Origin: Rhodospirillales bacterium
Lineage (GTDB): Bacteria; Pseudomonadota; Alphaproteobacteria; Rhodospirillales; Casp-alpha2
Length of the DNA: 32,000 nucleotides
Assembly (NCBI GenBank): GCA_040216635.1
Contig: JAVJOU010000003.1
Location: 87,175 to 119,174 of the forward strand
Direction: 5' to 3'
The translations under genes and the position numbers were made by a program. The notes beneath the pieces are model-generated. The model was not told where the DNA came from and did no database searches. It saw only the letters and a program-made list of their open reading frames with translations. Shown here in pieces: positions 1,670-17,253 of the stretch (within the stretch, counting starts at the first letter, position 1; each line of letters opens with the position of its first letter).

Positions 1670-1685
1670 GCCTTCCGCCCGGCAG

Positions 1686-1777: not shown

Positions 1778-2128
1778 CGCGGGTGACGGCGGCAATTGGG
1801 GCGTTGGGTCGCTAAGCTTTGACGATTGCGCCCGCCCGAGTGATCGCTTGCGCGGGCGTCTATTTTGCCCTATATTGAACCCGCTTGGACAAGTGCGCCT
1901 AATCCGCATTTGGTGTTGATGGGCGCAGCAGAATACCTTATATTGTCAGAATTGGAATTATAGCGACCCGGCACCAGTCGCGGGCGCTTCTTTCGTTTGG
2001 CGCATAGACCAGACGTACACAGCCCAAGTCCCTTAAACATCAGCCCGCCGCCGCCCGTTAGGGTGCGCGGTTTTTTTGTGCGGCCACGGGACGGCCGCGA
2101 CCAAACACCTATGAGAAGGAAAGCAGAA

Positions 2129-2320: not shown

Positions 2321-2344
2321 TCCCCCGACATGATCGAGTGACAC

Positions 2345-2367
2345 AGCGGCGCAAGCCGCTTTTTTTG
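2345..2367 (+). terminator. Rho-independent terminator
   Basis: agcggc-gcaa-gccgct hairpin followed by tttttt. Confidence 0.55.
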
Positions 2368-2475
2368 TGTCCGCGCGCACAAATGACAACCCCGCCGTTC
2401 GCAGCGGCGGGGCGTCTGAATTGCGTTTGTTTGGTGGTGCGCGCTCACGCCCCCTTGGCAAAGGACTAGAACAGG

Positions 2476-3045
2476 ATGAAACTATCTGCATTCCCCCGAA
2501 AATTCAACCATGGCGTTCCCGCGCCGACATCATCGGGCCGACGCCCAGGCTATCAAATCCCGGTAGGTGATCGGGTCGCCGTTGTTGACGCGCAGGACGC
2601 GCACATCATTAAGCAATATCGCTGGCGTCGTGGCGGGACGGGTGGCGGCTACGCGGTCGCGCGCGTCAAAGGATCGACGGTGTACATGCACAGGCTCATT
2701 ATGGGGGCCGGTGCCGGTGAGATCGTGGACCATGCAAACGGCGACACGATGGACAACCGCCGAAGCAACCTCCGGCTGGTCACGCGATCAGAAAACGCGG
2801 CCAATCGCGCCACAACTGAAAACGCCTCCGGCTTCCGGGGCGTTGTCTTTCATCCCCTGAAAAATCGCTATCAAGGTCGCGTCTCAAAAGACGGCGGCAC
2901 CTATCGCGGCCCCTACCGACGCAAGGCGGAAGATGCCGCGCGAGACTTCGACGCACTCGCCCGTGGCCTGTACGGCGCGTGTTGCTCGTTCAACTTTCCG
3001 ATGGATGGTGAACGGGGCGTTACGCCCGTTGGGGGTGCGCTATGA
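2476..3045 (+). CDS. HNH endonuclease (HNH_3-like) fused to an AP2 DNA-binding domain
   Basis: VDHANGDTMDNRRSNLRLVTRSENAAN is an HNH motif. SGFRGVVFHPLKNRYQGRVSKDGGTYRGPYRRKAEDAARDFDALA is an AP2-type fold pattern. Confidence 0.8.
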   Translation: MKLSAFPRKFNHGVPAPTSSGRRPGYQIPVGDRVAVVDAQDAHIIKQYRWRRGGTGGGYAVARVKGSTVYMHRLIMGAGAGEIVDHANGDTMDNRRSNLRLVTRSENAANRATTENASGFRGVVFHPLKNRYQGRVSKDGGTYRGPYRRKAEDAARDFDALARGLYGACCSFNFPMDGERGVTPVGGAL

Positions 3046-3581
3046 ACAACCAAGTTGAGGCGCTCACAGCCCATGACCCTATCAAGCCGGTCCCGCGCGA
3101 TATGCTGGCGAACGCAATCATGGTTGGTTCGCGGGCATATGCGGGCCGGGATCGCATGGCCCCCCTCGCTGGTCAATATGCGCCGTCCCTATGGATGGAA
3201 GATGAGGATGACGGTCTGCAACTTGTCACCTTCACGAATCATCCGTTGAACCGCTTTGCTATGTCGATCCTGGATGCAAACCCGTTCGACCGCGACACAG
3301 CCCGCGCGCTTCTGTTCCGGTCGTTCCTGTTCGCGGACGTGATGAACGACAAACGGGCAGCACCCTATCGGCGCGACGACACCGCCGCCCATATGGTTGA
3401 GGTTGACGACGCATTAATTGAAGCCGTCGCGCAGGTGCCGCACGCTTTCATGGCGCAACCAAACTTTGACGAAATATTCCGCCGCGCTGCTGATGCCGTC
3501 TCAGGCCAGCCGCGATTGCCTCTGGCCGATCCAGCGCCCGTGCGTTGTGGAAAACCGGAGGACGAAAACCATGCCGGATAG
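3042..3581 (+). CDS. Hypothetical protein (179 aa)
   Basis: ATGA overlap with the upstream gene and co-directional operon context. No recognisable motif. Confidence 0.55.
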   Translation: MNNQVEALTAHDPIKPVPRDMLANAIMVGSRAYAGRDRMAPLAGQYAPSLWMEDEDDGLQLVTFTNHPLNRFAMSILDANPFDRDTARALLFRSFLFADVMNDKRAAPYRRDDTAAHMVEVDDALIEAVAQVPHAFMAQPNFDEIFRRAADAVSGQPRLPLADPAPVRCGKPEDENHAG

Positions 3582-3858
3582 CGCACCCATAGACACCCGT
3601 TCCAACGAGGGCGTTGCCCTTCGATTGTCCGAAGGTTGGCAAATCAACTTCGACTCCCTTCAATGGATCGTCTGTAGGGGCCGAAATTTGCGTTCAGGGC
3701 GCAAGTGGCAGCCCGTGGCATACATCGCGGCCCGGAAGTCTTCACTCCTGCGGATACTGGCCGAATACGGGGCGGAAATTACCCCAGGGGCCGAAGCGAC
3801 CTTAACAGCCTGGCCCGACACCTTCCGCCAGTGGCGAGCGCAACGGGAGGGGCGTTAG
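3571..3858 (+). CDS. Hypothetical protein (95 aa)
   Basis: The internal ATG at 3571 is preceded by ggagga. It ends directly before the primase ATG. Confidence 0.5.
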   Translation: MPDSAPIDTRSNEGVALRLSEGWQINFDSLQWIVCRGRNLRSGRKWQPVAYIAARKSSLLRILAEYGAEITPGAEATLTAWPDTFRQWRAQREGR

Positions 3859-4851
3859 ATGTTTGGCGCTCATGCGCCGGATTACATCGCGCACCGGCTG
3901 GCCGTGTTTCCGACCGGGGGCGATGATGGCAAGCGGCCCCTTGTTGGTAATTATTCTCGAATGGGTTTGCCCGCGTCCCGGCGCTTATCCCAGGCCCAAC
4001 GATTCAGGACCGCGAATGTAGGATTCTGCACCGGCCCCAGATCAGGCTTAACCGTGGTCGATGTAGACAGCCAGAAGGAAAGCGACTTTGCCGCCGCGCT
4101 GGCCCACTTCGGGGACACCCCGGTAAAGATTCAAAGTGGATCTGGACATTTCCAGGCATGGTATAGGCACGGCGGAGAACGGCGACAAATCCGCGCCCTG
4201 GATAAGATCGACATTCTAGGCACCGGCCTTTGCATCGCCCCGCCGTCTGTTCGCCCGGATCGAGACAACGGCGCTTATCGGTTTCTGGAAGGCTCGCTTG
4301 ACGACCTGGACCGCTTACCCGCCCTGAAATCTCCCGTAGCGCCTTCCCAGGCTGGCCCGGCGCATGTTTCGACTGGAGGCGCGGAACAGGGCCAGCGGAA
4401 CATCTCTCTATTCAGACAGTGCTTAAAAGACCTAGCCGAAGGATGGCCCGCCGATGAACTGCCCGCCCGTGCTTGTGCCTGGAATGAACAGTGCACCCCG
4501 CCGCTACCAGAGGCCGAAGTGATGGCCGTTGCAGCATCGGCAATCCGCTATCACGAACGGGGCGAGAACTGGATAGGCCAGGAAGCCCGCGCACATATCA
4601 CGGCCAGTGAATTAGGCGACCTTGGCGGCAATGGTGATGCCGTGTTGCTCTTGATGAAAGTCCGGGCCGCGCATGGCTGGCGTTGTGGTGAACCGTTCCC
4701 GCTGGCGATGGCGTTGGGCGAGACGCTTGGATGGCACCCCAAAAAATTCCGACAAGTGCGCGGGTTTCTGTGCGAGCGCGATTATCTGGAATGCGTTCAC
4801 CCCGGCGGCGCTGGTCCCGGCGACCCGGCCCTATATCGGCTGCTTAAATGA
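3859..4851 (+). CDS. Bifunctional primase/polymerase (Prim-Pol N-terminal domain) with PriCT-like C-terminal domain
   Basis: VVDVDSQKE...IQSGSGHFQAWYRH...ILGTGLCIAPPS matches the Prim-Pol catalytic pattern (DxD, sGGxH). The C-terminal NISLFRQC...PLPEAEVMAVAASAIRY is PriCT-like. Confidence 0.8.
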   Translation: MFGAHAPDYIAHRLAVFPTGGDDGKRPLVGNYSRMGLPASRRLSQAQRFRTANVGFCTGPRSGLTVVDVDSQKESDFAAALAHFGDTPVKIQSGSGHFQAWYRHGGERRQIRALDKIDILGTGLCIAPPSVRPDRDNGAYRFLEGSLDDLDRLPALKSPVAPSQAGPAHVSTGGAEQGQRNISLFRQCLKDLAEGWPADELPARACAWNEQCTPPLPEAEVMAVAASAIRYHERGENWIGQEARAHITASELGDLGGNGDAVLLLMKVRAAHGWRCGEPFPLAMALGETLGWHPKKFRQVRGFLCERDYLECVHPGGAGPGDPALYRLLK

Positions 4852-5023
4852 CCGTTCGGGCAAAGTGGCAAAAGGGGGCACATTTTTGCCCCCAATATAA
4901 CTATACCCCTTCCCCCCTCTATCCAGGGGACCAGGATCGAAAACAGCCAGAAACCAATTTTGCGCGATTTTCGATTTTCAATCCGCGTCGTGAGACGCCG
5001 AGGCCCATAGAAGGAATTTCAGC

Positions 5024-5206
5024 ATGAAAGAAGATTTGCAATTTGGCCGCGTTGACCTTTTCCCAGACTGGCTGGAATTGCTGCGGTCGGTTGACTATGA
5101 CGTTGACCGGTTGCCGCGAGCCGACGCACGCGCGGTCTATCACGGCCTACGGATGAGCAATATTTGGCTGATGGTCCCCCGCCGGAGCCGTCGCGATGCT
5201 GATTGA
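5024..5206 (+). CDS. Small hypothetical protein (60 aa)
   Basis: gaagga lies 9 nt upstream of the ATG. Its stop overlaps the start of the next gene. Confidence 0.35.
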   Translation: MKEDLQFGRVDLFPDWLELLRSVDYDVDRLPRADARAVYHGLRMSNIWLMVPRRSRRDAD

Positions 5207-5726
5207 TGAATCTGTTTTCGCGGATTGGCCGCCGGGCGCGTTCATCTTCAACATGGCGAGTCCCGCCAAGGTGAACGCGGCCCGTTTACGCCGAATTGCG
5301 GAAGACCTGGCTACACACAGTAACCAGGATCATAGATGGCTTGGCGAGCGTGTTCTTGACTACCTGGACGACGCCCCACGAGGCGCGACCCTGGACCGTG
5401 CCCTAGGTGTTGAACCTTTGCCGTTTTGTCGCCCCTGGTGGGACGAGGACACCCGCGACAACCTAGTGACTCAACTGGCCGCCCACTTTCCAGGCAAGAA
5501 GCTAACCGTAAAGGCTAAGGCGAGTGCCGCCGCTGCGAGACGATATGCCACCGACGTATGGCCGCGCGAGTGTGGCCTTTCTGAGCCGCCGGAATGGCGA
5601 GAGGGGTCGGCGCAGGAAATCTGCTGGCGGCTTCACAAGGCCCCCGGCAAATGGCCGTTGGGCTGGCGCCAGATTTACAGCGTTTTGCAATCACGACCCG
5701 TTCCGATTGCAAAAACTGAGGCGTAA
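5196..5726 (+). CDS. Hypothetical protein (176 aa)
   Basis: Co-directional ORF with normal amino-acid composition. No recognisable motif. Confidence 0.55.
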   Translation: MLIDESVFADWPPGAFIFNMASPAKVNAARLRRIAEDLATHSNQDHRWLGERVLDYLDDAPRGATLDRALGVEPLPFCRPWWDEDTRDNLVTQLAAHFPGKKLTVKAKASAAAARRYATDVWPRECGLSEPPEWREGSAQEICWRLHKAPGKWPLGWRQIYSVLQSRPVPIAKTEA

Positions 5727-5777
5727 ATTTGTTGCATGGAAGGCGGGACAGCCCCCGCCCGTAGTGGAGAAATTAAA

Positions 5778-6383
5778 ATGTTTGGAAAAAAGCAGGCCAA
5801 GCTTCCGGCGGTTGAAACCGTGGAGACGTCTTCGCAGGACGCCCGCGCCAAGGTATCCGCATTGAGGGCACGTTTGCGCGAACTGGAAAACGAACGCGCC
5901 CGCCTGAATTCCGCACGTTGGGCGATTGAAACCGCGAATGATGGCGGCAAGCTTGATGATGCCGCCGCCGCGCTGTTGGAAGACGTTGCTGCCGAAATCC
6001 CAGACGTGACCAACATCGAGCAAAATCTCAAAAAGGTTGAGAACGATATCGTCGTTACAGAGAAAGCCTTATTCAAGGCACGGGAAATTCTGGACGCTGC
6101 AAAGCGGCGGGATGCAAGGGCGGCTGTTAAGCAGCTGCGCCCGGCGCACCGTGAGGCCGTCGCTAAAATCGCGCACGCCCTAGCCCTTTTGGAAGATGCC
6201 AACAGGGAGGAAGCCGCGATCAGGGGACAGATTCCGGGCGGCGGGCCAACGCTGCCGTTGGCTTCGTTCCCCGGCGTTGGGGGGCGTAATATCCAATGTA
6301 GTCCGGCCTTTTATTGGTTCCGCTTCGCCAAGGACAGCGGCTTGCTGGATGAGCGGCCCCTCTACGCTGACGCGGCGGATTGA
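5778..6383 (+). CDS. Coiled-coil hypothetical protein (201 aa); a scaffold-like role is only a guess
   Basis: The ATG at 5778 is preceded by ggagaa. Long charged, Ala-rich helical segments (ARAKVSALRARLRELENERARL...). It sits directly upstream of the prohead-protease-like gene. Confidence 0.5.
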   Translation: MFGKKQAKLPAVETVETSSQDARAKVSALRARLRELENERARLNSARWAIETANDGGKLDDAAAALLEDVAAEIPDVTNIEQNLKKVENDIVVTEKALFKAREILDAAKRRDARAAVKQLRPAHREAVAKIAHALALLEDANREEAAIRGQIPGGGPTLPLASFPGVGGRNIQCSPAFYWFRFAKDSGLLDERPLYADAAD

Positions 6384-6386
6384 TCC

Positions 6387-7031
6387 ATGACAAATTTGAT
6401 CGGAGTGGATGGCCGCGCCCTTGCCGTCGTGGGATTGGCTTTGCCCTATGGCGAGTGGATTTCCGATAGCAACCTACCCGAACGCGTCCAGTCTGGCGCG
6501 CTTGATAGTCAGTTTGCGCGGGGCGTGTGGTGTCCTGGTGATCCTCAATTGTCCAATGGCGTGACCTGGGAACATGACGACACATTCCGAATTGCAGAGC
6601 CGCAAAACGTCTCAATCCTGAATGCGCCGTCCGGCTTGTACTTCCATGCTCTACTGCCCGACAACGCGCGCGGAAGGCATGCCGCCCAATGCGCGGGATC
6701 AGGGATATTCGGCGCGAGCGTCGGCAATTTCGACATTCGCAACCAAGATCAGGACGGCACGGTTACGGCGTGCAGAATCCGCGCCATCGGCCTTACAGAC
6801 CGCCCGGCATATGAAACCGTTATTTGGCGTTCCGACGCGGCCCCCGAAAGCATGCCGACGGAAGCCCGAGACACTATGCGCCGGTTTCAGATTGCCGACA
6901 TGGCAGCGCGTAGCCGGACGGACGCCCCCGAAGCGAAGGGCACGGGTAAGGCTGTAATTCACATTTTCCAGGACGGCGCGAAAAACGGAAAGCCGACATA
7001 CCGCCGCGAAGTCAGAACGGTGCGCCCATGA
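6387..7031 (+). CDS. HK97-family prohead protease-like protein (S78 type)
   Basis: VTWEHDD (candidate catalytic His) and GIFGASVGNF (candidate Ser) occur in the usual order, and LTDRPAYE lies near the end of the domain. Confidence 0.6.
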   Translation: MTNLIGVDGRALAVVGLALPYGEWISDSNLPERVQSGALDSQFARGVWCPGDPQLSNGVTWEHDDTFRIAEPQNVSILNAPSGLYFHALLPDNARGRHAAQCAGSGIFGASVGNFDIRNQDQDGTVTACRIRAIGLTDRPAYETVIWRSDAAPESMPTEARDTMRRFQIADMAARSRTDAPEAKGTGKAVIHIFQDGAKNGKPTYRREVRTVRP

Positions 7032-7657
7032 ACGGCGCGACCTTAACCCTTGTAACACCGCCCCCCGTTTATCCGGTGACGGACGCGGAAGTGTGGGACC
7101 ATCTGAGGGTGAACCTCATAGGGTCGCCTGCGGTCCCTGTTGACCAGTCACATATCGCGACCCTCATTGCCGCCGCCGTCAACCATATGGACGGTAAGGA
7201 CGGCGCGTTGGGCCGCGCCTTGGTCACTCAAACCTGGGACTACAAAATGGATTGCCTTCCGCGTGACGGCTTTAAAGTCCCGTTGCCGCCCGTGCAGTCT
7301 GTGACGTTCATCAAGTACATCGACCTAAACGGGATCGAACAAACGCTATCCTCTGACCTGTACACGGTCGATACATCTTCTGAACCGGCGCGGATCGTCC
7401 CGGCATATGGCGAGACGTGGCCCGACGCCCGGAACCAAGTCAACGCCGTCACAGTGCGCCTTGTCTGCGGCTACCCCCCCGAGGGAAGCCCGGCAGACTA
7501 CCGCGCGAATGTGCCCGGCCCCATCAAATCGGCGATTAAGCTGTTGGTCGATGACCTGTACCAGCACCGGGGCACAGCGGGGCCGCGCGCACCCATCAAG
7601 ACCATTCCCCTCAATGTGTCGGCGCTTATCGCGCCCTATCGCGCGTGGGGGGTGTGA
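7028..7657 (+). CDS. Head-tail connector/adaptor (gp6-like, phiE125 gp8 / TIGR02215-type)
   Basis: N-terminus: VTDAEVWDHLRVN...IATLIAAAVNHMDGKDGALGRALVTQTW. C-terminus: PLPPVQSVTFIKYIDLNG...YTVD...PARIVPAYGETWP...VTVRLVCGY. Confidence 0.7.
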   Translation: MNGATLTLVTPPPVYPVTDAEVWDHLRVNLIGSPAVPVDQSHIATLIAAAVNHMDGKDGALGRALVTQTWDYKMDCLPRDGFKVPLPPVQSVTFIKYIDLNGIEQTLSSDLYTVDTSSEPARIVPAYGETWPDARNQVNAVTVRLVCGYPPEGSPADYRANVPGPIKSAIKLLVDDLYQHRGTAGPRAPIKTIPLNVSALIAPYRAWGV

Positions 7658-7660
7658 CGC

Positions 7661-8077
7661 ATGTTTGACAAACTGAAACACAAATTCGGTAGGGCCGTTC
7701 TCCCCCAAGCCGAAGGGGCCGGCAGCGTCTCCGGGTGCGTTGGCGCGCCGCCCCATCAATTCCAGGACCAAGCCGACAAGGAAACAGACGCGGCTTTTTT
7801 AATCATCGAGCAAAGCCCGGACCCCGCCATGGCTGCAATCACACTTGCCACAGTTGCGGTTGATCTTGTCGCGGCTGTAGGTGGTCGAAAGGTCGCGCGT
7901 GATTTCGTGATGATCCAGCTTGCCCGCGTCCGCGCTAACGCCATCCCGGCCCAAGTCGATATTGAAGGGATCACGGTTGCTGATGTACGCGCCGCCATCG
8001 AAGCACAGCGGGTCAAGGTCGAACAGGCCGCGCAATCATCGGAACAGCTTCGCGTCCTGATGCCGGGGCCGCAATGA
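7661..8077 (+). CDS. Hypothetical protein (138 aa)
   Basis: Co-directional ORF 3 nt after the previous stop. No motif recognised. Confidence 0.5.
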   Translation: MFDKLKHKFGRAVLPQAEGAGSVSGCVGAPPHQFQDQADKETDAAFLIIEQSPDPAMAAITLATVAVDLVAAVGGRKVARDFVMIQLARVRANAIPAQVDIEGITVADVRAAIEAQRVKVEQAAQSSEQLRVLMPGPQ

Positions 8078-8183
8078 TGGGCGAGGTATTGCACACAGAC
8101 GGCCACCAGGGGATGGGGGGGCAAAATAGCTACAAGACGGGTTTTTGCGTACCGGTGTTGCCCTTTTGCGTGGATGAAATGGA

Positions 8184-8555
8184 GTGTTTCCTTTGAAAAA
8201 TTCTGATGCCCGTTCGTCCGTCAAAGGACTGTCCGCCGAAGCGAAACGCTGGCAGCGCCGCCTTACCGACGAATATTCGCTAGACGACGAGGCCGCTTGC
8301 TTGTTGCTGCAAACGGCGCTGGAAGCGTTCGACCGTATGAGGGACGCCCAACGCTACATCAAAAAAGACGGTGCAGTGGTCAAGGATCGTTTCGGCCAGA
8401 CGCGGGCACATCCCGCCGTGGTCATTGAACGCGATAGCCGCGCCGCGATGCTGGCCGCATTGAAGGCGTTGAATCTGGATATTGAACCTTTGGCCGATGG
8501 TCCAGGCCGTCCCGCCGGTTCATTCAAAACCGGGGGCAAGCGAAGTGGCGACTAA
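8184..8555 (+). CDS. Phage terminase small subunit, P27 family
   Basis: LSAEAKRWQRRLTDEY.LDD.AACLLLQTALEAFDRMRDAQRYIKKDG..VKDRFGQTRAHPAV is the typical P27 TerS pattern. The start is uncertain: GTG at 8184 or TTG at 8193. Confidence 0.75.
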   Translation: MFPLKNSDARSSVKGLSAEAKRWQRRLTDEYSLDDEAACLLLQTALEAFDRMRDAQRYIKKDGAVVKDRFGQTRAHPAVVIERDSRAAMLAALKALNLDIEPLADGPGRPAGSFKTGGKRSGD

Positions 8556-8790
8556 ACGACGGAAAAGAGTTCGGGGATTTACCGAACGGATTACGCCGGA
8601 GGCCGTGGCAGCCTATCAGGCCGGGGATTGGGGAGCGCTCACCCGTGCGTTGAGATTGAAGCCATGGGACATGACCGCGCGCGCCGTGATCCATGGTCAT
8701 TGCGTTGTGGACACTCCCGAACAGATCGCCCGGACGAATGCCCTACGGGCGGAACTTGACGCGCTGGCGGGGGGTGCCGATGGCGACTAA
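8545..8790 (+). CDS. Small basic hypothetical protein (81 aa)
   Basis: GTG start overlaps the end of terS. The N-terminus is VATKRRKRVRG. Confidence 0.45.
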   Translation: MATKRRKRVRGFTERITPEAVAAYQAGDWGALTRALRLKPWDMTARAVIHGHCVVDTPEQIARTNALRAELDALAGGADGD

Positions 8791-9049
8791 ACGCACGCGC
8801 CGTTCACGGGGACGCCGCCCTGATGATGCCCGCGCATGGGCCGTCTTGTTTGAAACGGGGCACGATTATTTTGAAGACCTGGCCCGCCTTGGGTTTCCCG
8901 GTGGCGATGGCGACCGCGCCGCCCGAACAGCGGCAAGGGACGCATGGGCGCGTCTGGGGCGCACCTTCCTGTCCGCTTGGCAACCGACACCACAACGCCA
9001 GACACCTTGGGCGCGGGATCAATTCGGCGCGCCTGTAGGGGGTGTGTGA
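8780..9049 (+). CDS. Small basic hypothetical protein (89 aa)
   Basis: The ATG overlaps the previous gene. The N-terminus MATKRTRRSRG is encoded by nearly the same DNA as the previous start. Confidence 0.45.
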   Translation: MATKRTRRSRGRRPDDARAWAVLFETGHDYFEDLARLGFPGGDGDRAARTAARDAWARLGRTFLSAWQPTPQRQTPWARDQFGAPVGGV

Positions 9050-9486
9050 TGGGGCCGGTTAAATTCAATGTCTCAGGTTTGCGGGAAGTGGAAACCGCGC
9101 TCACCCGCCTTGGCCCCGAACTGGCCGAACAGGTAGGGGATACAGCCGTGCGCGCAATGTCGAAACCCATCATTGAGGAAGCCAAACACCGCGCGCCGCG
9201 AGATACCGGCGACTACGCCACTAAGGGAATCGGCTACGCCAAGGATAAGGCGGATTCCAGAGACGGACGTCGGGCCGGGAAGGTTGGTGCGACCGGAGCG
9301 GGACGTTTCATCGCACACCTTTTGGAATTCGGAACATCGAAGGCGGCGGCAAAGCCGCACTTCCGCCCCGCCCTGGACAGTAGGGCGAATGATGCAATTA
9401 GGGCGGGCGCCGAAGCCTTGGCCCGTGGATTAAAGAACGTCGCGCGCCGACTGGCGACCGGCAAGAAAGTTAGGAGTATTCGATAA
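9049..9486 (+). CDS. HK97 gp10-family head-tail/tail-completion protein
   Basis: AKHRAPRDTGDYA...GRFIAHLLEFGTSKAAAKPHFRPAL matches the gp10-like pattern (P..tG.L...vEfGt...a.PF..PA). Confidence 0.75.
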   Translation: MGPVKFNVSGLREVETALTRLGPELAEQVGDTAVRAMSKPIIEEAKHRAPRDTGDYATKGIGYAKDKADSRDGRRAGKVGATGAGRFIAHLLEFGTSKAAAKPHFRPALDSRANDAIRAGAEALARGLKNVARRLATGKKVRSIR

Positions 9487-11777
9487 TGGCTACGTCTGTT
9501 GGTTCAGTTGTCATTGACCTTGGGCTTGAGTCGGCTTCGTTTAGTCGCAACGTCGCGAAAGCGAACAGCGATCTATCGCGCGCAACAACCCAAATGCGGC
9601 TGCATATGCGTTCCGTGGATCGGGCCGCGCGTGATATGTCCCGCCAATTCGGGCAACTGAAATCCGCCGCCGCCGCTTTCGCGGGCGTCCTGGCCGTGCG
9701 CCAGTTTACGCAATTCACGAAATCCGCAATTGAAACCGGGGACGCCTTGGCGAAGCAATCCCGACAATTGGGAATCGCCGCCTCAGAACTGCAACGCTAC
9801 CGGATCGAGGGCGATCTTGCCGGGGTGGCTACCGAAAAACTTGAATCCGGTATCGGGGCTTTCGTTAAGCGCGTTGGGGAACTACGCGCTGGAACGGGAA
9901 CGCTGGTCACGATCCTGGATAAGTCGAACGTGGCGCTTAAGGAACAGTTGCTTGCCGCCAAAGACACGGGCGAGGGGATCGACATAATTCTAAAGGCCAT
10001 CCGGGAAGCTGAAACGGCGTTCGACAAACAAGCCCTTTCCGCCGCCGCCTTTGGCCGACAAGCCGGGCAAGCCATGGTCCTGCTGGCAGAGGAAGCCGGG
10101 AAGCTGGACGGCCAAATGGTCAACCTTGTCACGCGCTCCGATGAAATGCTGGCCGCGTCGGAACGCCTGAATGATGAGTTCACGCTATTTCAATCCGCGC
10201 TATCGGCGGGGTTTGATAATGCCATTGTAACCGGCTTTGCCGGGTCGCTGGACGTAACCGTTGAGTCCATGCGCTCGGCGCGGGAAGTCGGAGAAACCTT
10301 CGGCAAGGCCGTGGGGGCCTCCATGCGCGCCCTTATCACGGTGGCGAAAACCGTTGCCGAAAACATGCGGGGAATCACAGCGGCAATTGCCGGGCTTGTC
10401 GCCTTGAAGGCAGCAACACTATTCACGGGCATTGCGACGGCAACCGCGACATTCGCGACCGCGACCCTTGCCGCCGCCCGAGCCCAAGGCGTGTTGAACA
10501 CCATCGTTAGCAAGTCCGTCTTGGGGGCAATTGCGAAACTGGCAATCACTCTTGGGGCCGGTGCCTTATCGTGGGCCGCATTCGGGAAGGAAGCGGACGC
10601 CGCCGCAAAGGCCGTAGATGCCGCCGCTAAGGACATTGCTGATTCACTCTCCGGCGCGGGTGGTGCTACTCAGTTTGTCGGCGCGCAACAAAGCGCCTTT
10701 GACCAATTGCAGGAATCACTTGTCCCGGCGATCAAGGCGCAACGTGAATACGCCGAAGGCGTGAAGGCATTGGACGCTGCCGTCGAGGCGGGCAAGATCA
10801 GCTTCATGGACTACAACCTGATGCTGGAAACGCTTCAGATGAACTTGGACGAAGCGACAAAGGGGACCATTGCTCTTTCAAAGGCACAGAAGGAAGCCGC
10901 CGACGCCAGTAAGGCTGCGAAAACAGAGAACACCCGCATTGCCGCCGAAACCCAGGCCATCATGGACGGGGCCAAGGCATGGGAAGATTACAAGAAGTCT
11001 CGCGAGGTCGATCAGGAAGTTACGGCGCTCAAAAAGGATCTGGAATCCGCCGGATTGGCCGCCGATGAAATCAAGCGCCTGACGGAAGAACGCCGTTTCC
11101 TGCTGCAAGTTCAACAAGAAGCCATCGAACAACATGAACAGGAACAAACCCTTTATCGGGAGTTAGAGCAAGTCGGCTCCCGCGCCTTCGACCGCATTGG
11201 TGCCGCTGTTACAGAGATGTTTGTGCAGGGCAAGTCCAGCGCCTTCGAATGGAAGAATGTTCTGCTCGGGGTGATCTCCGAAATTCAGCAGGCATTCATC
11301 GAACTGGCGTTGAATCAGGCCAAGGCGTCTGCGTTTGGTGGTGGTGGCTTCCTGTCCTCAATTTTGGCTGGGTTTTTCGGCGGCGGCGGAAGTGCCGTTG
11401 CGGGTGCTTCTGGAATGAGCGCCATCGGATCATCGGTCCCAATGGCGTTCTTGGCAGATGGTGGTCCAGCTAAAGCCAACACGCCCTATATCGTTGGTGA
11501 GGAAGGCCCGGAACTATTTGTTCCCAACGTCTCCGGCCAGGTTGTTCCGAATGACAGGCTTGTCTCCGGCTCGGGGATGTCGCGGGTTTCTTCCGGTGTA
11601 TCCGAGAAGTCCGGCGACACCTACGTCATCGACGCCAGGGGCGCGGACCGCGAAGGCTTGGCGCGTCTCGAAAAGATGATTCAGTCTATCAACGGCAGCA
11701 TCGAAAAACGCGCCGTTGGGGCAGTTGCCGATGCCCAACGTCGTGGTCGTCCGGCCATGCGGGGGGCCTTCGGGTGA
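9486..11777 (+). CDS. Tail tape measure protein (763 aa)
   Basis: Long Ala-rich helical protein with a hydrophobic central segment and a Gly-rich tail. It has the C-terminal PYIVGEEGPELFVPNVSGQVVPN motif common in tape measure proteins. Confidence 0.8.
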   Translation: MATSVGSVVIDLGLESASFSRNVAKANSDLSRATTQMRLHMRSVDRAARDMSRQFGQLKSAAAAFAGVLAVRQFTQFTKSAIETGDALAKQSRQLGIAASELQRYRIEGDLAGVATEKLESGIGAFVKRVGELRAGTGTLVTILDKSNVALKEQLLAAKDTGEGIDIILKAIREAETAFDKQALSAAAFGRQAGQAMVLLAEEAGKLDGQMVNLVTRSDEMLAASERLNDEFTLFQSALSAGFDNAIVTGFAGSLDVTVESMRSAREVGETFGKAVGASMRALITVAKTVAENMRGITAAIAGLVALKAATLFTGIATATATFATATLAAARAQGVLNTIVSKSVLGAIAKLAITLGAGALSWAAFGKEADAAAKAVDAAAKDIADSLSGAGGATQFVGAQQSAFDQLQESLVPAIKAQREYAEGVKALDAAVEAGKISFMDYNLMLETLQMNLDEATKGTIALSKAQKEAADASKAAKTENTRIAAETQAIMDGAKAWEDYKKSREVDQEVTALKKDLESAGLAADEIKRLTEERRFLLQVQQEAIEQHEQEQTLYRELEQVGSRAFDRIGAAVTEMFVQGKSSAFEWKNVLLGVISEIQQAFIELALNQAKASAFGGGGFLSSILAGFFGGGGSAVAGASGMSAIGSSVPMAFLADGGPAKANTPYIVGEEGPELFVPNVSGQVVPNDRLVSGSGMSRVSSGVSEKSGDTYVIDARGADREGLARLEKMIQSINGSIEKRAVGAVADAQRRGRPAMRGAFG

Positions 11778-11842
11778 GTTTGGCTATACGGGCGTTTGGC
11801 CCTTGGTAAGGGAGTATTCCTTAGCAGGGAGCCCGCTTGTAG

Positions 11843-11898
11843 TGCCCAGGGGCGGATTCGAACCACCGACACCCGCATTTTCAGTGCGGTGTTCTACC
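11843..11898 (-). pseudogene. tRNA-Phe(GAA) 3' fragment (D-arm remnant to discriminator), non-functional
   Basis: The minus strand reads ggtagaacaccgcaCTGAAAAtgcgggtgtcggtggttcgaatccgcccctgggca. The anticodon arm, variable loop, T arm and 3' acceptor strand are intact. There is no 5' acceptor/D-stem partner and no CCA. Confidence 0.75.
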
Positions 11899-12355
11899 TA
11901 TTTCCCGTCGGGCGGCAGTACCCCGGCAATCGAATTGCCCTTCTGGCGTCCGGCGTTTCCAATTCACGATACCGTCCACCGGAAAACCTGGGGCAATCGA
12001 GCGCCAACCCAGCCTTGATAACCTCGGTCCCAATGTCCCTGTTCCCGAGATAGCAGATACCAACAACCCGGTCATGGGTTCGCGTCCCATCCAATTCGCA
12101 CCGCACGGCCTGGCCCATGACCAGGCGCACCATGAATGCTTTACCCTCATCGTATAGGGGTTGCCTTTTCTCGGGTGCGGAGACGCCTTGAAGGCGCACG
12201 GCGATACCCTCAACCTCAATCGTGTCACCGTCGCGCACGTGGGTGACGGTCCCTGTCAAGTCGGCGGCGAAGCCTGTGACGGGATAGCTGAGCAAGGTCG
12301 TGACGGCGAAGAAGAGCTTAGCGTAATTCCCAAACTTCACAGGTGAACGGGTCAA
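11894..12355 (-). CDS. Secreted thermonuclease (staphylococcal nuclease/SNase family)
   Basis: Signal peptide ...LLSYPVTGFA-AD. VRDGDTIEV...VRLQGVSAPE shows SNase Ca-binding and catalytic motifs. Confidence 0.8.
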   Translation of the reverse strand: MTRSPVKFGNYAKLFFAVTTLLSYPVTGFAADLTGTVTHVRDGDTIEVEGIAVRLQGVSAPEKRQPLYDEGKAFMVRLVMGQAVRCELDGTRTHDRVVGICYLGNRDIGTEVIKAGLALDCPRFSGGRYRELETPDARRAIRLPGYCRPTGNR

Positions 12356-12358
12356 TTT

Positions 12359-12754
12359 CTAGTTGGACAATTTTACCGCCAAATTGATGACGACGTCGTA
12401 AAAATATATCACGCCCATTACAACGGCAGCTACTCCAGGTAAGAGCAAAAAAAATAACCCCGCCCAAAAAACTAAACCGATAAAAGCGTTGTCACTATCT
12501 AATCCCCATTTTCCAATCCGATGGCCTATCCGTCCGAGTGCAGATAACACAGTTACAAGCCAAAGTAGCGAAATAAAGAACGCAAACCCCCTAATCAGCA
12601 CATCGCCAGATAATCGACCGATGGCTACAATAGTTGATATTATTAACAACCATCCTAGAGATTCAAAAACACGCCCTGTCAATCCCCATAAGTGTTGATT
12701 AACCCATGTGATAGCCGCTGATTTTAGTGAATCTAGTTTATTCATAATCAACAT
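12359..12754 (-). CDS. Small integral membrane protein (131 aa, 3-4 TM), unknown function
   Basis: gggagg RBS. Hydrophobic segments: GWLLIISTIVAIG, FAFFISLLWLVTVLSALG, FIGLVFWAGLFFLLL, VAAVVMGVIYFY. About 41% GC by hand count over 12361-12760, against about 73% in the next 60 bp. Confidence 0.65.
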   Translation of the reverse strand: MLIMNKLDSLKSAAITWVNQHLWGLTGRVFESLGWLLIISTIVAIGRLSGDVLIRGFAFFISLLWLVTVLSALGRIGHRIGKWGLDSDNAFIGLVFWAGLFFLLLPGVAAVVMGVIYFYDVVINLAVKLSN

Positions 12755-12780
12755 TAACCTCCCTGACTACCTGGATAAAA

Positions 12781-13023
12781 TCACTCCCCCGGCCCCCGAA
12801 GCCTGACCCCCGGCCCCTGGCCGTTGCTGGCGATGAACACGACCCCGGCGGCCTCTAGGGCCGTTCGTAATCTTTCAAGTGTCTCGTCGCGCGCTGAAAC
12901 GGGTCCGTGAATCTTTTCCAGGCGCTTAACCGTCTCAAGCGAGACGCCCGCCGCGCCCGATAGGTCGCGTTGCTCCATGCGAACCAACGCCCGCGCGGCT
13001 CGGATTTGTTCCCCGGTCATCAT
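12781..13023 (-). CDS. XRE-family helix-turn-helix transcriptional regulator (80 aa)
   Basis: GEQIRAARALVRMEQRDLSGAAGVSLETVKRLE is a classic HTH_3 pattern. Confidence 0.8.
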   Translation of the reverse strand: MMTGEQIRAARALVRMEQRDLSGAAGVSLETVKRLEKIHGPVSARDETLERLRTALEAAGVVFIASNGQGPGVRLRGPGE

Positions 13024-13034
13024 GCAGATAATTT

Positions 13035-13083
13035 ACACCTCAGGTGTTGAAACTGCAAATAAATGTAATTACACTTGAGGTGT
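13035..13083. promoter_or_regulatory. Two operator-like palindromes in the divergent region
   Basis: acacct-c-aggtgt (13035-13047, perfect) and acactt-g-aggtgt (13071-13083, one mismatch). Each is preceded by tta. Confidence 0.5.
13047..13075 (+). promoter_or_regulatory. Candidate rightward sigma70-type promoter bracketed by the two palindromes
   Basis: TTGAAA (13047-13052), 17-nt spacer, TACACT (13070-13075). The -10 lies inside the second palindrome. Confidence 0.4.
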
Positions 13084-13159
13084 AAGTAAGCAGGGCCGGA
13101 AAGGGATTGCGCCCCCTTCCAGCCCCTACGCCCCAAACCTGAAACGGAGGTTCAAGACG

Positions 13160-13873
13160 ATGCCTGATTTTACCAGACGACAGGCTACGAATGCCATCGC
13201 CGCAAGCGCCGTGATCGCCCCAATTACATTAACCGCGCATGCCTCAACTGACGGTGCGGTTGCGGCCCTCGTCAAAAAACGTGCGGAACTATGGGTTAAA
13301 TTTTGCGCCGCCGACAATTTAGCTGATGAGCGCCGGTTCGCGTTGCCTGATGAAATCCGCCGCCCGCGTGTCTTGTTGAGCGACGGACACCCAATAGGCC
13401 CGCAATACGCACACAGCAGGGAAGAAATCGCCCGGTATTTCGACCGTTTCAAACAGGAAGCCTTGGCTACAAAGGATTTCGCCGGGTTCCTGATGTGGGC
13501 GCAAATCAATCAAATACCCGGAAGCTGGACGGCGGATGAAATGCAATCGTCGGGACCGCTGGCCCGGGAACGGTATTTTGATAACCTCGCCAAAAACCGC
13601 GCCGCCAAGCTGGCCGAATACGAACAGGCGGAAGCCCGCACCCAAGCCGCCAAGGACGCGGCGGGCGTGACGGATGCCGAAGCCGAAGCGGCCCGGATCG
13701 ATGCGGAAGAAAGGGCAACCGTACAAGCAATAATCGACACCCCGAGCGGTGGCCCCCGCGACTTGCTCGCCAAACTTTCTATGTTGGAAATCACGGAGGG
13801 CAGCAGCGAAGCCTACTGGCACGGCGACATTCTCGAAAGCCTGCGCCGCGATCTACAGGCCGTGGGGGCGTGA
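13160..13873 (+). CDS. Hypothetical protein with Tat-like N-terminus (237 aa)
   Basis: MPDFTRRQATNAIAASAVIAPITLTAHA has a twin-Arg, a hydrophobic stretch and A-H-A. The rest is helical and charged, with no recognised domain. Confidence 0.55.
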   Translation: MPDFTRRQATNAIAASAVIAPITLTAHASTDGAVAALVKKRAELWVKFCAADNLADERRFALPDEIRRPRVLLSDGHPIGPQYAHSREEIARYFDRFKQEALATKDFAGFLMWAQINQIPGSWTADEMQSSGPLARERYFDNLAKNRAAKLAEYEQAEARTQAAKDAAGVTDAEAEAARIDAEERATVQAIIDTPSGGPRDLLAKLSMLEITEGSSEAYWHGDILESLRRDLQAVGA

Positions 13874-13876
13874 CCC

Positions 13877-14038
13877 ATGACCGCAACCCAAGAACAACTT
13901 GCGCGCCTTCGTGACTGCCTGACGCGCCTACGGGGCGTGGTGGAAGACCTTGAGCGGGATCACGCCGCCAACGACGAAGCCAAGCCCCAAGGGGAGGTAG
14001 AGTTTGACAAGCCTGACAAGCCGCCAGTGATCGACTAG
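13877..14038 (+). CDS. Small hypothetical protein (53 aa), below the ORF-track cutoff
   Basis: The ATG at 13877 lies 4 nt after the previous stop (MTATQEQLARLRDCLTRLRGVVEDLERD...). It ends TAG at 14036-14038, and a terminator follows. Confidence 0.35.
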   Translation: MTATQEQLARLRDCLTRLRGVVEDLERDHAANDEAKPQGEVEFDKPDKPPVID

Positions 14039-14051
14039 GCAGCAAAAACCT

Positions 14052-14075
14052 CGCCCCGCTTCGGCGGGGTTTTTC
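14052..14075 (+). terminator. Rho-independent terminator
   Basis: ccccgc-ttcg-gcgggg hairpin followed by ttttt. Confidence 0.65.
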
Positions 14076-14116
14076 TTGTCCGAGTCCTCTTGCCAGATGG
14101 GAGCGGCGGGGAATAT

Positions 14117-14131
14117 GTTCGCATTATGTTC
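14117..14131. promoter_or_regulatory. Alphaproteobacterial-type LexA (SOS) box, GTTC-N7-GTTC
   Basis: gttcgcattatgttc. It overlaps the candidate -10 (TATGTT; -35 TTGCCA at 14090-14095) and the umuD ATG at 14126. Confidence 0.65.
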
Positions 14132-14566
14132 TCATCATCCCAGAAACACCGAATCCTGCACCCCATCGTTGAACGGCGGCTTCCGTTACCGTTGTTATTG
14201 TCGAGTGTGCCCGCAGGCTTCCCGAGCCCCGCCGAAGATTTCGCGGATGGGGCACTCGACCTTAACGATTTGATCGAGCATCCAGCGGCGACCTTCATTG
14301 TTCGGGTGTCTGGGTATTCTATGACTGGGGCGGGTATTTTTGACGGCGACCTACTGATTGTGGACCGGAGTATTAAGCCACGATCCGGCCAAATCGTCGT
14401 TGCCGTCATGGCGGGGGATATGATGGTGAAGCGTCTGAGACAGAAATCCGGGCAGTGGTGGTTGGTGCCTGAAGCCCAAGACCATGAAGAATTTCAAGCT
14501 GTGGAAATGGGCGAGGACTCGGAAATCTGGGGCGTGGTCAAGAATGTGATGCGGTGCTTGTCGTGA
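14126..14566 (+). CDS. umuD: UmuD-like S24 peptidase (translesion polymerase V accessory subunit)
   Basis: [12 protein letters not shown] aligns with E. coli UmuD VQCGFPSPAADY, placing an Ala-Gly cleavage site. GYSM supplies the Ser and MVKRL the Lys. Start set at the ATG at 14126 within track ORF 14090..14566. Confidence 0.85.
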
Positions 14567-15816
14567 CCCGCATTTTCGCCCTAGCCGATGCCAACAATTT
14601 TTATGCGTCATGCGAGCGGGTGTTCCAGCCGGAGCTACGCGATAAGCCCACGGTGGTCCTGTCCAACAACGACGGATGTGTGATAGCCCGTTCACCGGAG
14701 GCCAAAGCTCTAGGCATCGCCATGGGAGCCCCTTTTTTCAAGCTGCGAGAGCGGCCCGAATGCCGGGGCGTCCAAATCCGATCCGCGAACTTCACGTTAT
14801 ACGGCGACATGAGCCGCCGGTTCATGGACATCATCGCCGCCAACGTGCCGGACATGGAAATCTACAGCATTGATGAGTGTTTCATCGATTACACCGGCAC
14901 GGATCAGGCAGCGGGTCACGCGCGGGCGCTTCGGGCCACTATCCTGCAATGGACCGGCCTCCATGTGAGCATCGGCCTAGGTGTGACCAAGACCCTTGCC
15001 AAGGTCGCCAACCGCCGGGCCAAGACAGCCCCTGATGGGGTTTTTGATTTGATGGCCCCGGACATACGGGAAAACGTGCTCAGGGAAACCGACGTTGGCG
15101 ACGTGTGGGGAATCGGGCGGCAGTGGTCGAACCGCCTTAAGCTTCGCGGCATTCAGAATGCCTTTGACCTGGCCCAGGTGGACCGGCAATGGGCGCGCAA
15201 CGTCATGGGCGTCACCGGACTGCGCACGGTCGATGAACTGAACGGTCTGTCCGCAGTGGATCTGGAACATGTTCTCCCGGATAAGCAGACCTTGTGCGTC
15301 TCCCGCAGCTTCGGAACCACCGTCCGGGATCGTGATGGACTGGCGGCCCGCCTGCATCACTTCGCAGCCAGGGCGGCGGAAAAGCTGCGCCAGGGCGGCT
15401 TGGTCGCGGGTGCCGTCAACGTATTCATCCGGGGCAACCCATTCCGTCCCGACCTACCGCAATATTCGAACAGCGCCACAGTGAACATGCTGCAATCGAC
15501 CTCCGATACCGGAGACATTGTACGAGCTACGTTACAAGGCCTGGATGGGATATACCGGCAAGGCATTCCCTACAAAAAAGCAGGTGTGTTGCTGGTGAAT
15601 ATTCATCGTAGAGAGCAAGCGCCGCAGACATTATTCAGCAGGCCAGACGCGCGCCGGGATGCGTTAATGCACACCCTGGATAAATTGAACAGCAAGCACG
15701 GTGCCGGCACCCTCTGTTATGGCGAACTACCACAGCCACGGACGTGGTTTATGCGGCAGCAGCATCGATCGCGACGGTATACGACGCATTGGGGAGAGTT
15801 GCCGATAGTGAGTTAA
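14554..15816 (+). CDS. umuC: Y-family DNA polymerase V catalytic subunit UmuC
   Basis: [48 protein letters not shown] closely parallels the E. coli UmuC N-terminus. GTG starts at 14554 or 14563 overlap the umuD stop. Confidence 0.9.
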
Positions 15817-15859
15817 TGCACGCGGGGGGGGGCAGGTTTTGGAGGGTGGGCCAAGATAA

Positions 15860-15888
15860 TTGACAAGCGGAATTTATTGCAACATAAT
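15860..15888 (+). promoter_or_regulatory. Candidate sigma70-type promoter for int
   Basis: TTGACA (15860-15865), 17-nt spacer, CATAAT (15883-15888). The -10 overlaps a copy of the 11-mer motif (ttgcaacataa, 15877-15887). Confidence 0.4.
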
Positions 15889-15923
15889 CGCGATGTAGCC
15901 AACAGCCACTAGGAGCGAGTGCC

Positions 15924-17147
15924 ATGGCAAAGGTTAGAAAGCGCAAATGGGAGTCCGGCGGCAAAACCCGCGAGGCTTGGGTGGTCGATTATTTCGACCA
16001 AAACCGAAAGCGCCACATTGAGACGTTCAAGACGAAGCGCGCCGCCGATGATCGGTTGCATGAAATCGCGGGCGAGGTTCGCGCCGGGACGCATACCGCC
16101 GCAAGCGAAAGTGTGACGGTAAAGGAAGCCGCCGCCGATTGGATCACGCGCGCGGAATTGAACGAGCGCGAACAATCGACCATCGACCAATACCGCCAAC
16201 ACGTAAACCTCCATATCGTGCCGTTGATCGGCAATGAAACGTTGGCGCGGTTGACGGTGCCCGCCGTCGAAGCCTTCCGGGATAAGCTGCTGGATCGTGC
16301 GTCGGCCAAGCGGCCCGATGATAAGATTTCACGCGCCACGGCCAAGAAGGTACTGGCGAGCCTGAAAGGCATTCTCAGGGAAGCGCAGAGGCGCGGGAAG
16401 GTGGCTCAGAACGTCGCCGCCGACGTGCGAGTGGAAATGTCGAAACGCAACCGCCGTAGCTTGGAAATCGGGCGGGACATTCCTTCCCGCGACGAAGTGA
16501 AAGCGATCATTGATGCCTCAGAGGGTCGATGGCGCCCTCTGATTATCACGGCGATATTCTCGGGCTTGCGCGCCAGTGAATTGCGCGGGCTGCTTTGGGA
16601 TCACGTCGATTTTGAAGGCAAGGTTATTCACGTCCGGCAACGGGCAGACCGCTATGGCGAAATTGGCAACCCGAAATCGGAAACCAGCCGCCGCGATGTT
16701 CCGATTCCCGATATTGTGGTGAACACCCTAAAGGAATGGCGCTTGCAGTGCCCGAGGCACGGGAAGTCGGAAACCAGTCCGGGCGAATTGTGGCTGGTAT
16801 TCCCGAACGGCCTAGGCAAGATCGAGTCTCACGCGAACATCTATAACCGGGGTTTGGTCCCTGCCCAGATCGCCGCCGCCGTCACCGTGGATACGGGCGA
16901 AGTGGATAAGGACGGAAACCCCATCCTGGCCCCCAAGTATGCGTTGCACGCCTTCCGCCACTTCTACGCATCTTGGCTTATCAACCGAAAGAAGGACGGG
17001 GGCCTTGAGCTTCCGGCAAAAACCGTGCAATCCCGCCTTGGTCATTCATCTATTCAGATCACCATGGACCTATACTCGCACCTGTTCCCCGCCGACGACG
17101 GCCACCACAAGGAATTGTCAGATGGGGCGCGGCTACTACTCGGGTAA
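15924..17147 (+). CDS. int: Tyrosine-type site-specific integrase (phage integrase family)
   Basis: Catalytic pattern: ...GLRASELRGL..., HAFRHFYAS (H-x-x-R) and GHSSIQITMDLYSHL (Tyr). The N-terminal arm-binding-type domain is MAKVRKRKWESGGKTREAWVVDYFD. An aggag RBS is present. Confidence 0.9.
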   Translation: MAKVRKRKWESGGKTREAWVVDYFDQNRKRHIETFKTKRAADDRLHEIAGEVRAGTHTAASESVTVKEAAADWITRAELNEREQSTIDQYRQHVNLHIVPLIGNETLARLTVPAVEAFRDKLLDRASAKRPDDKISRATAKKVLASLKGILREAQRRGKVAQNVAADVRVEMSKRNRRSLEIGRDIPSRDEVKAIIDASEGRWRPLIITAIFSGLRASELRGLLWDHVDFEGKVIHVRQRADRYGEIGNPKSETSRRDVPIPDIVVNTLKEWRLQCPRHGKSETSPGELWLVFPNGLGKIESHANIYNRGLVPAQIAAAVTVDTGEVDKDGNPILAPKYALHAFRHFYASWLINRKKDGGLELPAKTVQSRLGHSSIQITMDLYSHLFPADDGHHKELSDGARLLLG

Positions 17148-17169
17148 TTGCGACAAGAATGCAACAAAA
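17148..17169 (+). repeat. Tandem 11-mers ttgcgacaaga + atgcaacaaaa (candidate integrase arm-type sites)
   Basis: Starts immediately after the int stop codon and ends 38 nt before the attR core. Same motif as the attL-proximal copies. Confidence 0.55.
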
Positions 17170-17207
17170 AGGCCCAAAAGCCGCAGAAATACTAGCCTGA
17201 AAACAGT

Positions 17208-17253
17208 ATCATAATCCGCGTGTCGGGGGTTCGAGTCCCTCCTCCGCTACCAA
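17208..17253 (+). repeat. attR core: 46-bp direct repeat (displaced original 3' part of tRNA-Met)
   Basis: Identical to 1583-1628. No 5' half of a tRNA lies upstream, so this is not a gene. Confidence 0.85.

Follow-up and report, generated by a model that had tools for sequence, protein, structure and literature searches.

A 32-kb stretch of a Rhodospirillales contig (GenBank JAVJOU010000003.1), hereafter the window, meaning the whole stretch that was analysed, carries a phage-derived element integrated at a tRNA-Met gene. Three tightly packed minus-strand genes of this element encode a predicted XRE-type helix-turn-helix (HTH) regulator, a small membrane protein that we named TM131, and a nuclease of the SNase/thermonuclease family with predicted export, hereafter SNase. 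These genes most plausibly constitute a mosaic accessory cassette assembled on the core regulator of the element, and not a co-evolved three-component system (probability roughly 0.62). Both XRE and SNase belong to known kinds of protein, and TM131 is an orphan for which a role can only be guessed. Sequence comparison with related islands shows that a variable slot directly follows the stop codon of XRE. The slot is flanked by two conserved genes, those of XRE and of the nuclease, and its contents have been replaced on at least three occasions, by PemK, by HigBA together with other genes, and by the orphan membrane gene. The cassette is best filed as regulator-linked accessory cargo of a phage-derived island carrying a plasmid-type thermonuclease. 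An earlier note on this DNA had described the three genes as cargo, which they are, as accessory genes of a mobile element beside its regulator; it had also proposed that they form one defence or exclusion system, a proposal that fares poorly against the evidence presented here.

Results

Layout and base composition of the cassette

Open reading frame (ORF) calls confirmed the three minus-strand genes of the earlier note and their spacing (Table 1). With the longest ORFs, XRE and TM131 are separated by 26 nucleotides (nt), and TM131 and SNase by 3 nt. Public gene calls start later, TM131 at an ATG at 12745 (128 amino acids, aa) and SNase at a GTG, and the corresponding gaps are 35 and 18 nt. 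The GC content of TM131 is 0.409 (0.39 at third codon positions, GC3), as estimated earlier at about 41%, compared with 0.654 for XRE, 0.589 for SNase and 0.593 for the window. TM131 is the lowest-GC 396-nt stretch of the 32 kb, lying about 4.8 standard deviations under the mean (mean 0.594, standard deviation 0.039). The sole other stretch with a GC content below 0.47 in 396-nt windows is at approximately 31260–31800, where it overlaps a minus-strand ORF (31164–31880). The earlier figure of 73% GC over 60 bp of XRE holds for the last 60 coding bp, which abut TM131, and not for the first 60 as originally described, where the value is 63%. Low GC content sets in directly past the stop codon of XRE and extends some 10 codons into the SNase ORF.

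Homology breakpoints and the variable slot

Related islands (loci are denoted here by L numbers) place the limits of the insertion at the nucleotide level. In L009 and L014, homology to the window covers the last 81 nt of XRE (80% identity, with its limit precisely at the stop codon), the SNase body (78%) and a tRNA-Phe relic (91%) that in these islands lies between SNase and the integrase gene. Between the XRE remnant and SNase, both islands carry a 69-aa ORF and a PemK-family toxin gene, and no TM131. Across L009, L014 and L015, homology to the window stops at 12781 and restarts at 12268. In L015, an orf237-like gene is divergent from XRE, which is followed by HigB, HigA, three more genes, SNase and the integrase. 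L175, a sister element on a 137-kb metagenome contig, has amino acid identities to the window of 82% for the integrase, 72% for XRE, 71% for the neck protein and 60% for the tape-measure protein, and retains the region upstream of XRE with both of its palindromes. It is without SNase, TM131, orf237 and umuDC, and its PemK gene begins 2 nt past the XRE stop codon.

Because nucleotide homology breaks exactly at the XRE stop codon and restarts inside SNase, TM131 reads as a recently acquired foreign insertion and the newest arrival in the cassette, in agreement with the earlier note. The insert probably also supplied the first ~10 codons of the present SNase ORF. SNase, in turn, is older in the module than the TM131 insertion, since its flanks are homologous in L009 and L015, which are without TM131. 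SNase and the tRNA-Phe relic are an older, widely travelled end-module of the related islands. A low-GC gene in L009 (3992–5212), whose 349-aa product looks secreted, replaces the 5' two-thirds of XRE and leaves the last ~30 XRE codons; this represents a further insertion into the same module. The breakpoints neatly resolve the refilling of the slot, an otherwise ordinary example of cargo build-up beside a mobile-element regulator. They make the slot a reasonable hunting ground, in marine Alphaproteobacteria, for toxin and exclusion genes not yet described.

The XRE regulator, its candidate operators and downstream genes

XRE matched a PHROG transcriptional regulator (2.8e-7) and Pfam HTH_31 (19.6 bits, under the cut-off of 27). 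Its PADLOC matches were to generic regulator models only (control protein, 1.5e-5; the RmrA N-terminus; CapH). Its relatives form a consistent family of at least 469 loci in Alphaproteobacteria with an invariant C-terminus, EAAGVVFI..NG.G.GVR. Two palindromes upstream of XRE are candidate operators. The perfect palindrome ACACCTGAGGTGT occurs once in the window (0.11 occurrences expected), and its half-sites are kept in L175. The second, TTACACCTCAAGTGTAA, is present in L175 as an identical 17-mer within intergenic sequence of ~69% nucleotide identity, and overlaps a promoter-like plus-strand site at 13047–13075. Both have ACAC(C)...(G)GTGT half-sites that are conserved between the window and L175 (L175 ~4940–4995). 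A -10-like TAAATT stands ~6 nt before the XRE start codon, so that the XRE mRNA may be leaderless or nearly so.

The genes just 3' of XRE homologues are heterogeneous, and most of these ORFs are without a family match; the few with a match include genes for BrnT, HigB, PemK, an AbiJ N-terminal domain, DUF6998 and PDC-S31. A low-GC segment was found within 900 nt downstream of XRE in 11 of 97 other XRE loci examined. At four loci, low-GC genes lie at or overlap the stop codon of the XRE homologue, 12–20 points under the GC content of the locus: a 167-aa three-helix membrane protein in L022 (4239–4742), a 349-aa protein with the AbiJ N-terminal domain in L141 (4244–5293), and proteins of unknown kind in L115 (4222–4887) and L116 (1491–1943). 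TM131 has no similarity to the L022 protein. In six phage-type loci (L017, at 4242–4424, L019, L021, L133, L182 and L183), a conserved ORF of ~62 aa overlaps the XRE homologue by 8–17 nt, with a convergent gene for the large terminase coming after it. Its product has a single transmembrane helix (MIEALFWI...) and its GC3 is 0.74–0.77. This is a second recurring pair of XRE and a small membrane protein, unrelated to TM131.

The orphan membrane gene TM131

TM131 looks like a real gene on several features of its sequence. When the low-GC segment was shuffled 5000 times, a stop-free run of the observed length was reached only 10 times. The ORF closely matches the extent of the insert, and a Shine-Dalgarno sequence (AGGGAGG) lies upstream at a suitable distance. 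The codon positions are gene-like, with GC content at first positions (GC1) above that at second (GC2) and third positions. The hydropathy profile contains four hydrophobic segments (approximately residues 33–48, 55–73, 92–107 and 108–127) with basic loops.

Homologues of TM131 were sought in a word-indexed search of 5.8 billion protein clusters, a full HMMER scan of 1.84 billion representatives, and tblastn-confirmed scans of Joint Genome Institute (JGI) metagenomes and IMG/VR; each returned only the window's own sequence. The gene was seen in one context only, which the window shares with a 5.4-kb Logan contig of identical sequence. No family match was obtained in Pfam (also at E ≤ 10), PHROGs, NCBIfam or PADLOC, and no homology to known superinfection-exclusion (Sie) protein families was found in PHROGs. 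A single-sequence AlphaFold2 (AF2) model was all-helical with two long helices (predicted TM score 0.41), and had no fold match in the PDB by Foldseek (best E 1.9); built from no alignment, the model is uninformative, as expected.

The predicted exported nuclease SNase

The assignment of SNase to its family and to the OB-fold SN domain is solid. The protein matches Pfam PF00565 (29.5 bits against a cut-off of 21, E = 1.1e-6) and a PHROG endonuclease, and a profile of 12 homologues matches a PDB thermonuclease at 1e-6. Its AF2 model has a predicted local distance difference test (pLDDT) score of 86.7, exceeding 94 over residues 31–140, and Foldseek aligned it with probability 1.0 to staphylococcal nuclease (TM-score 0.64–0.68 on target) and to SND1 SN domains. 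Residues D44, R54, E62 and R96, invariant in the SNase family, align with the catalytic residues D21, R35, E43 and R87 of the Staphylococcus aureus enzyme. The motif at codons ~57–62 (window 12163–12180) is GVSAPE in the SNase family, compared with VDTPE in S. aureus nuclease. An N-terminal hydrophobic helix (residues 11–22) is followed by GFA|AD, and an equivalent signal-like segment and four invariant cysteines were present in 12 of 12 aligned homologues. Export and disulfide bonding fit this conservation. The four cysteines are absent from the staphylococcal enzyme.

SNase is, judging by where its relatives occur, typical mobile-element cargo. At least 541 homologues were found. By tblastn, relatives were detected in 1,567 PLSDB plasmid records, 806 of them conjugative, with 46–54% identity on Roseobacter-group plasmids, and in just one cultured-phage record. 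Homologues are also present in 67 IMG/VR contigs. A plasmid-type SNase nuclease, which the earlier note had listed as an alternative, is consistent with this distribution. The closest homologues (81% aa identity) are convergent with umuDC on plasmid-like marine Tara contigs (L002, L003, L004, L005 and L016), which also bear ParA and a DnaA_N-like replication gene. A copy with 74% identity adjoins an integrase gene in an island, downstream of a PemK module, and a copy with 72% identity lies in another island. On Klebsiella plasmid NZ_CP034677.1 (L256), a thermonuclease gene is arranged tail-to-tail with a gene for an SOS-response-associated peptidase. SNase genes may recur beside DNA-damage-tolerance genes. 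A comparable multi-transmembrane gene directly upstream of SNase was found at 0 of 85 other SNase loci.

Discussion

Proposed working of the cassette

XRE is probably the conserved regulator of the element and would bind both palindromes, regulate its own expression and repress the divergent orf237-umuDC-integrase string. Transcription from XRE most likely continues across TM131 and SNase, because the gaps are only 26–35 and 3–18 nt with no convincing promoter or terminator between the genes; internal promoter and terminator scans of the AT-rich insert gave no more matches than its composition alone predicts. Any production of the regulator would then also yield the cargo, as with prophage “morons” that ride an immunity transcript. 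SNase would probably leave the cytoplasm through Sec, form disulfide bonds in the periplasm, and cut nucleic acid non-specifically outside the cytoplasm. Its likeliest benefit would be the destruction of free or incoming DNA, as a barrier to transformation or plasmids, or else DNA scavenging or biofilm turnover. TM131 most likely works independently at the inner membrane, either as an exclusion-type or as a toxin-like accessory protein, a guess made from its position. A defence role for TM131 is conceivable.

Several observations weigh against this explanation. A weak hairpin with a T-run is present at the XRE 3' end (12787–12801), in a sequence where terminator-like matches are no commoner than chance. 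The slot is defined by four related elements only. The single genomic context of TM131 places its function beyond the reach of comparison, and the 3-nt junction of TM131 with SNase could mean functional coupling that is invisible in a single instance. The Ca2+ ligands Asp40 and Thr41 of S. aureus nuclease are S59 and A60 in the SNase family, so activity of SNase is not guaranteed. Neither SNase start candidate is preceded by a recognisable Shine-Dalgarno sequence, which makes its expression level uncertain.

Nucleases of this kind on other mobile elements

The ParB protein of the parCBA stability operon of plasmids RP4/RK2 is a plasmid protein of the thermonuclease family. Plasmid proteins of this family and SNase, whose signal peptide is predicted, are alike in being small and signal-peptide-bearing, and in being encoded by accessory genes of mobile elements. 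Unlike the RP4/RK2 operon, SNase has no resolvase or ParC partner, and it resides in an integrated phage-derived element beside a relic attachment (att) site. SNase-like genes are also found among the establishment genes of pLS20-family plasmids (PMC8708921).

The sole experimental precedent that our analysis turned up for an exclusion role of such a nuclease is YokF of prophage SPbeta of Bacillus subtilis, a membrane-localised thermonuclease with a signal peptide that blocks nanotube-mediated plasmid exchange (bioRxiv 10.1101/2025.10.26.684598). YokF and SNase share an element-borne SNase domain with an N-terminal signal peptide (predicted in SNase), YokF acts on DNA outside the cytoplasm as SNase would, and YokF is a precedent for exclusion by a lone nuclease. 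At 296 aa, YokF bears an autoinhibitory TNM domain at its C-terminus, and FlhA is its partner in the Gram-positive cell (bioRxiv 10.1101/2025.10.26.684598). SNase, in contrast, has 153 aa and four conserved cysteines, belongs to a Gram-negative-type lineage, and is known here from sequence; no TNM domain is present in it, since the protein ends ~10 residues past the SN domain and leaves no room for one. The SNase family is widespread on plasmids and islands, and the literature contained nothing decisive on an established role for SNase genes on Gram-negative mobile elements; YokF suggests a limiting of DNA traffic.

Alternative explanations

A broader reading is that the slot after the XRE stop codon is a general docking site for swappable anti-competitor genes in phage-derived islands of Alphaproteobacteria, with TM131 as a new membrane exclusion or abortive-infection effector on the regulator transcript, perhaps cooperating with the nuclease. 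We consider this unlikely. Prophage morons and superinfection-exclusion membrane proteins, such as SieA and SieB of P22, are a known class that comes close (PMC3594210, PMC10883804). Like TM131, they are horizontally acquired, deviate in base composition and lie between core genes near the lysogeny module, and many are small inner-membrane proteins. Classical morons bring their own promoter and terminator, whereas the TM131 insert leaves no space for a promoter and sits inside a pre-existing transcript.

It is likewise unlikely that XRE and TM131 are a pair resembling a toxin–antitoxin (TA) or abortive-infection (Abi) system, in which TM131 would be a membrane-depolarising toxin checked by XRE, transcriptionally or directly, and SNase would be unrelated cargo. 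The layout recalls HigBA- or PemIK-type TA modules, which also have a small HTH gene with a cargo gene at or overlapping its stop codon, and the slot in relatives does hold type II toxins (PemK in L175, the 69-aa ORF and PemK in L009, HigB/HigA in L015). XRE, moreover, weakly matches HTH models of HipB/Y4mF-type and MqsA-type antitoxins in NCBIfam, and overlapping small membrane ORFs follow other XRE homologues (L022 and the L017 group). However, XRE and its own candidate operators are conserved whatever gene comes next, which argues for a regulator of the element and not a dedicated antitoxin. TM131 matches no toxin family (Pfam, NCBIfam and PADLOC, E ≤ 10), and the known membrane toxins of TA systems tend to be far smaller.

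A dedicated exclusion or defence system of all three genes, in which for example TM131 senses or gates incoming DNA at the inner membrane and a periplasmic nuclease destroys it, is quite improbable. The tight same-strand packing beside the element's regulator would suit it, as would the toxin or Abi-like genes that occupy the same slot elsewhere, the low GC content that is common among horizontally moving defence genes, and the example of YokF, a prophage SNase-type nuclease that restricts plasmid traffic from the membrane. Co-conservation of the membrane gene and the nuclease, on which the earlier note had staked this idea, was checked across genomes, and the pair is not recurrent: TM131 has no homologue, and a partner of its kind is missing at the 85 other SNase loci. 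SNase also predates the TM131 insertion, as the flanks in L009 and L015 indicate, and PADLOC returned no defence-system match for TM131 or SNase. An Abi-like effector role is doubtful because an exported nuclease cannot reach phage DNA in the cytoplasm.

The parallel with lambda cI-rexA-rexB drawn in the earlier note extends only to layout. In both cases a regulator gene heads a same-strand series that encodes a small four-helix membrane protein and one further protein, the divergent control region contains operators, and the genes are probably expressed in the integrated state. The order differs, being cI-RexA-RexB in lambda and regulator-TM131-effector here. The second protein of the cassette is predicted to be exported and not cytoplasmic, XRE is without an S24 cleavage domain, and the cassette's pair is not co-conserved. 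BLASTP gave no similarity between TM131 and RexB (E = 1.0) or between SNase and RexA (E = 19), and the cassette holds no other RexA candidate.

We give still lower odds to TM131 being non-functional, a chance or decaying ORF in a foreign AT-rich fragment. This would agree with an orphan that has no homologue and a single context, and with an AF2 model, from the single sequence, of merely two long helices. A length that shuffling seldom reproduces, the strong Shine-Dalgarno sequence, the excess of GC1 over GC2 and GC3, the coherent four-segment pattern with positive loops, and an ORF that fills its insert almost exactly all argue otherwise. Least probable is that TM131 is a holin-like helper freeing the nuclease from the periplasm, akin to the holin-assisted nuclease release of Serratia: TM131 is a small, multi-helix membrane protein, the junction is 3–18 nt, and the same insert may have supplied the new SNase N-terminus, yet SNase homologues elsewhere do without such a partner, no holin family was matched in Pfam or PHROGs, and no endolysin gene is nearby.

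The tRNA-Met element

The element that carries the cassette is a 15.6-kb insert (1629–17207) bracketed by a perfect 46-nt repeat; the tRNA-Met was found by both ARAGORN and Rfam. Its left two-thirds encode an HNH endonuclease, primase-like, head-tail adaptor, small-terminase-like and neck proteins, and a tape-measure protein of 763 aa. Its right third is accessory and regulatory, comprising the tRNA-Phe relic, SNase, TM131 and XRE on the minus strand, then orf237, orf53, umuD-like, umuC and the integrase on the plus strand.

Table 1 Features of the cassette and of the surrounding element, in window coordinates
Feature	Position	Strand	Description
attL	1583–1628	plus	3' 46 nt of tRNA-Met (gene 1551–1627); perfect direct repeat; left boundary of the element
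Tape-measure-like protein	9486–11777	plus	PHROG tape-measure families; last phage-structural gene, accessory region directly after
tRNA-Phe(GAA) relic	11843–11913	minus	3' two-thirds intact, 5' part degenerate; Rfam tRNA, 28.4 bits, E = 2.8e-4
SNase (SNase/thermonuclease-family nuclease)	11894–12355	minus	153 aa from TTG, or 148 aa from GTG at 12340; predicted signal peptide; four family-invariant Cys
Low-GC (~41%) foreign segment	12320–12780		Variable slot from XRE stop codon to SNase body; GC profile and homology breakpoints
TM131	12359–12754	minus	131 aa; predicted four-helix inner-membrane protein, N-in/C-in (positive-inside rule)
XRE-type HTH regulator	12781–13023	minus	80 aa; C-terminal motif EAAGVVFI..NGxGPGVRL; conserved core gene of the module
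Palindrome ACACCTGAGGTGT (perfect), candidate operator	13035–13047		Between -35-like and -10-like hexamers, few bases before XRE ATG
Palindrome TTACACCTCAAGTGTAA, candidate second operator	13069–13085		XRE/orf237 divergent intergenic region
orf237	13160–13873	plus	Divergent from XRE, in string 13160–17147; Pfam, PHROG and NCBIfam scans
orf53		plus	Divergent from XRE, in string 13160–17147; Pfam, PHROG and NCBIfam scans
umuD-like	14090–14566	plus	Pfam/PHROG/NCBIfam
umuC	14554–15816	plus	Pfam/PHROG/NCBIfam
Tyrosine integrase	15924–17147	plus	Pfam/PHROG/NCBIfam
attR	17208–17253	plus	Second 46-nt tRNA-Met copy, 60 nt past integrase gene; right boundary

The product of orf237 had no family match in Pfam, PHROG or NCBIfam, and is 36% identical to its counterpart in L015. 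Its N-terminus reads like a twin-arginine signal (..TRRQ.., then an Ala-rich hydrophobic stretch), and similar N-termini occur at the same divergent position in L015 (1240–1965), L017 (3503–3907), L025 (2948–3589) and L026 (3330–3881). No relatives of orf237 or of the tape-measure protein were found in IMG/VR.

The tRNA-Phe relic scored just under the Rfam gathering score of 29 and was not called by ARAGORN. The last SNase codons overlap it, and the SNase stop codon (TAG, 11894–11896) sits in the GGTAGA segment of the relic. It is probably what remains of the attachment site used by an ancestral island that targeted tRNA-Phe, and was the only match when the DNA of 11780–13160 was compared with cultured phages and plasmids. 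An independent Logan contig (L001) is 100% identical to the window over 11862–17237 and ends inside the relic. A chimeric assembly at this point was considered; L001 neither confirms nor refutes it, and the same transition from tape-measure to accessory genes in L175 argues against it.

Genes for a large terminase, a portal and the distal tail were not seen in the element. Complete phages with a homologous tape-measure protein continue beyond it with distal tail genes, DUF1833, NlpC/P60 and GpJ-like genes. The phage genes of L175 end at the same point as those of the window element, and this shared truncation point suggests a family of conserved satellite-like or stably defective elements and not random decay.

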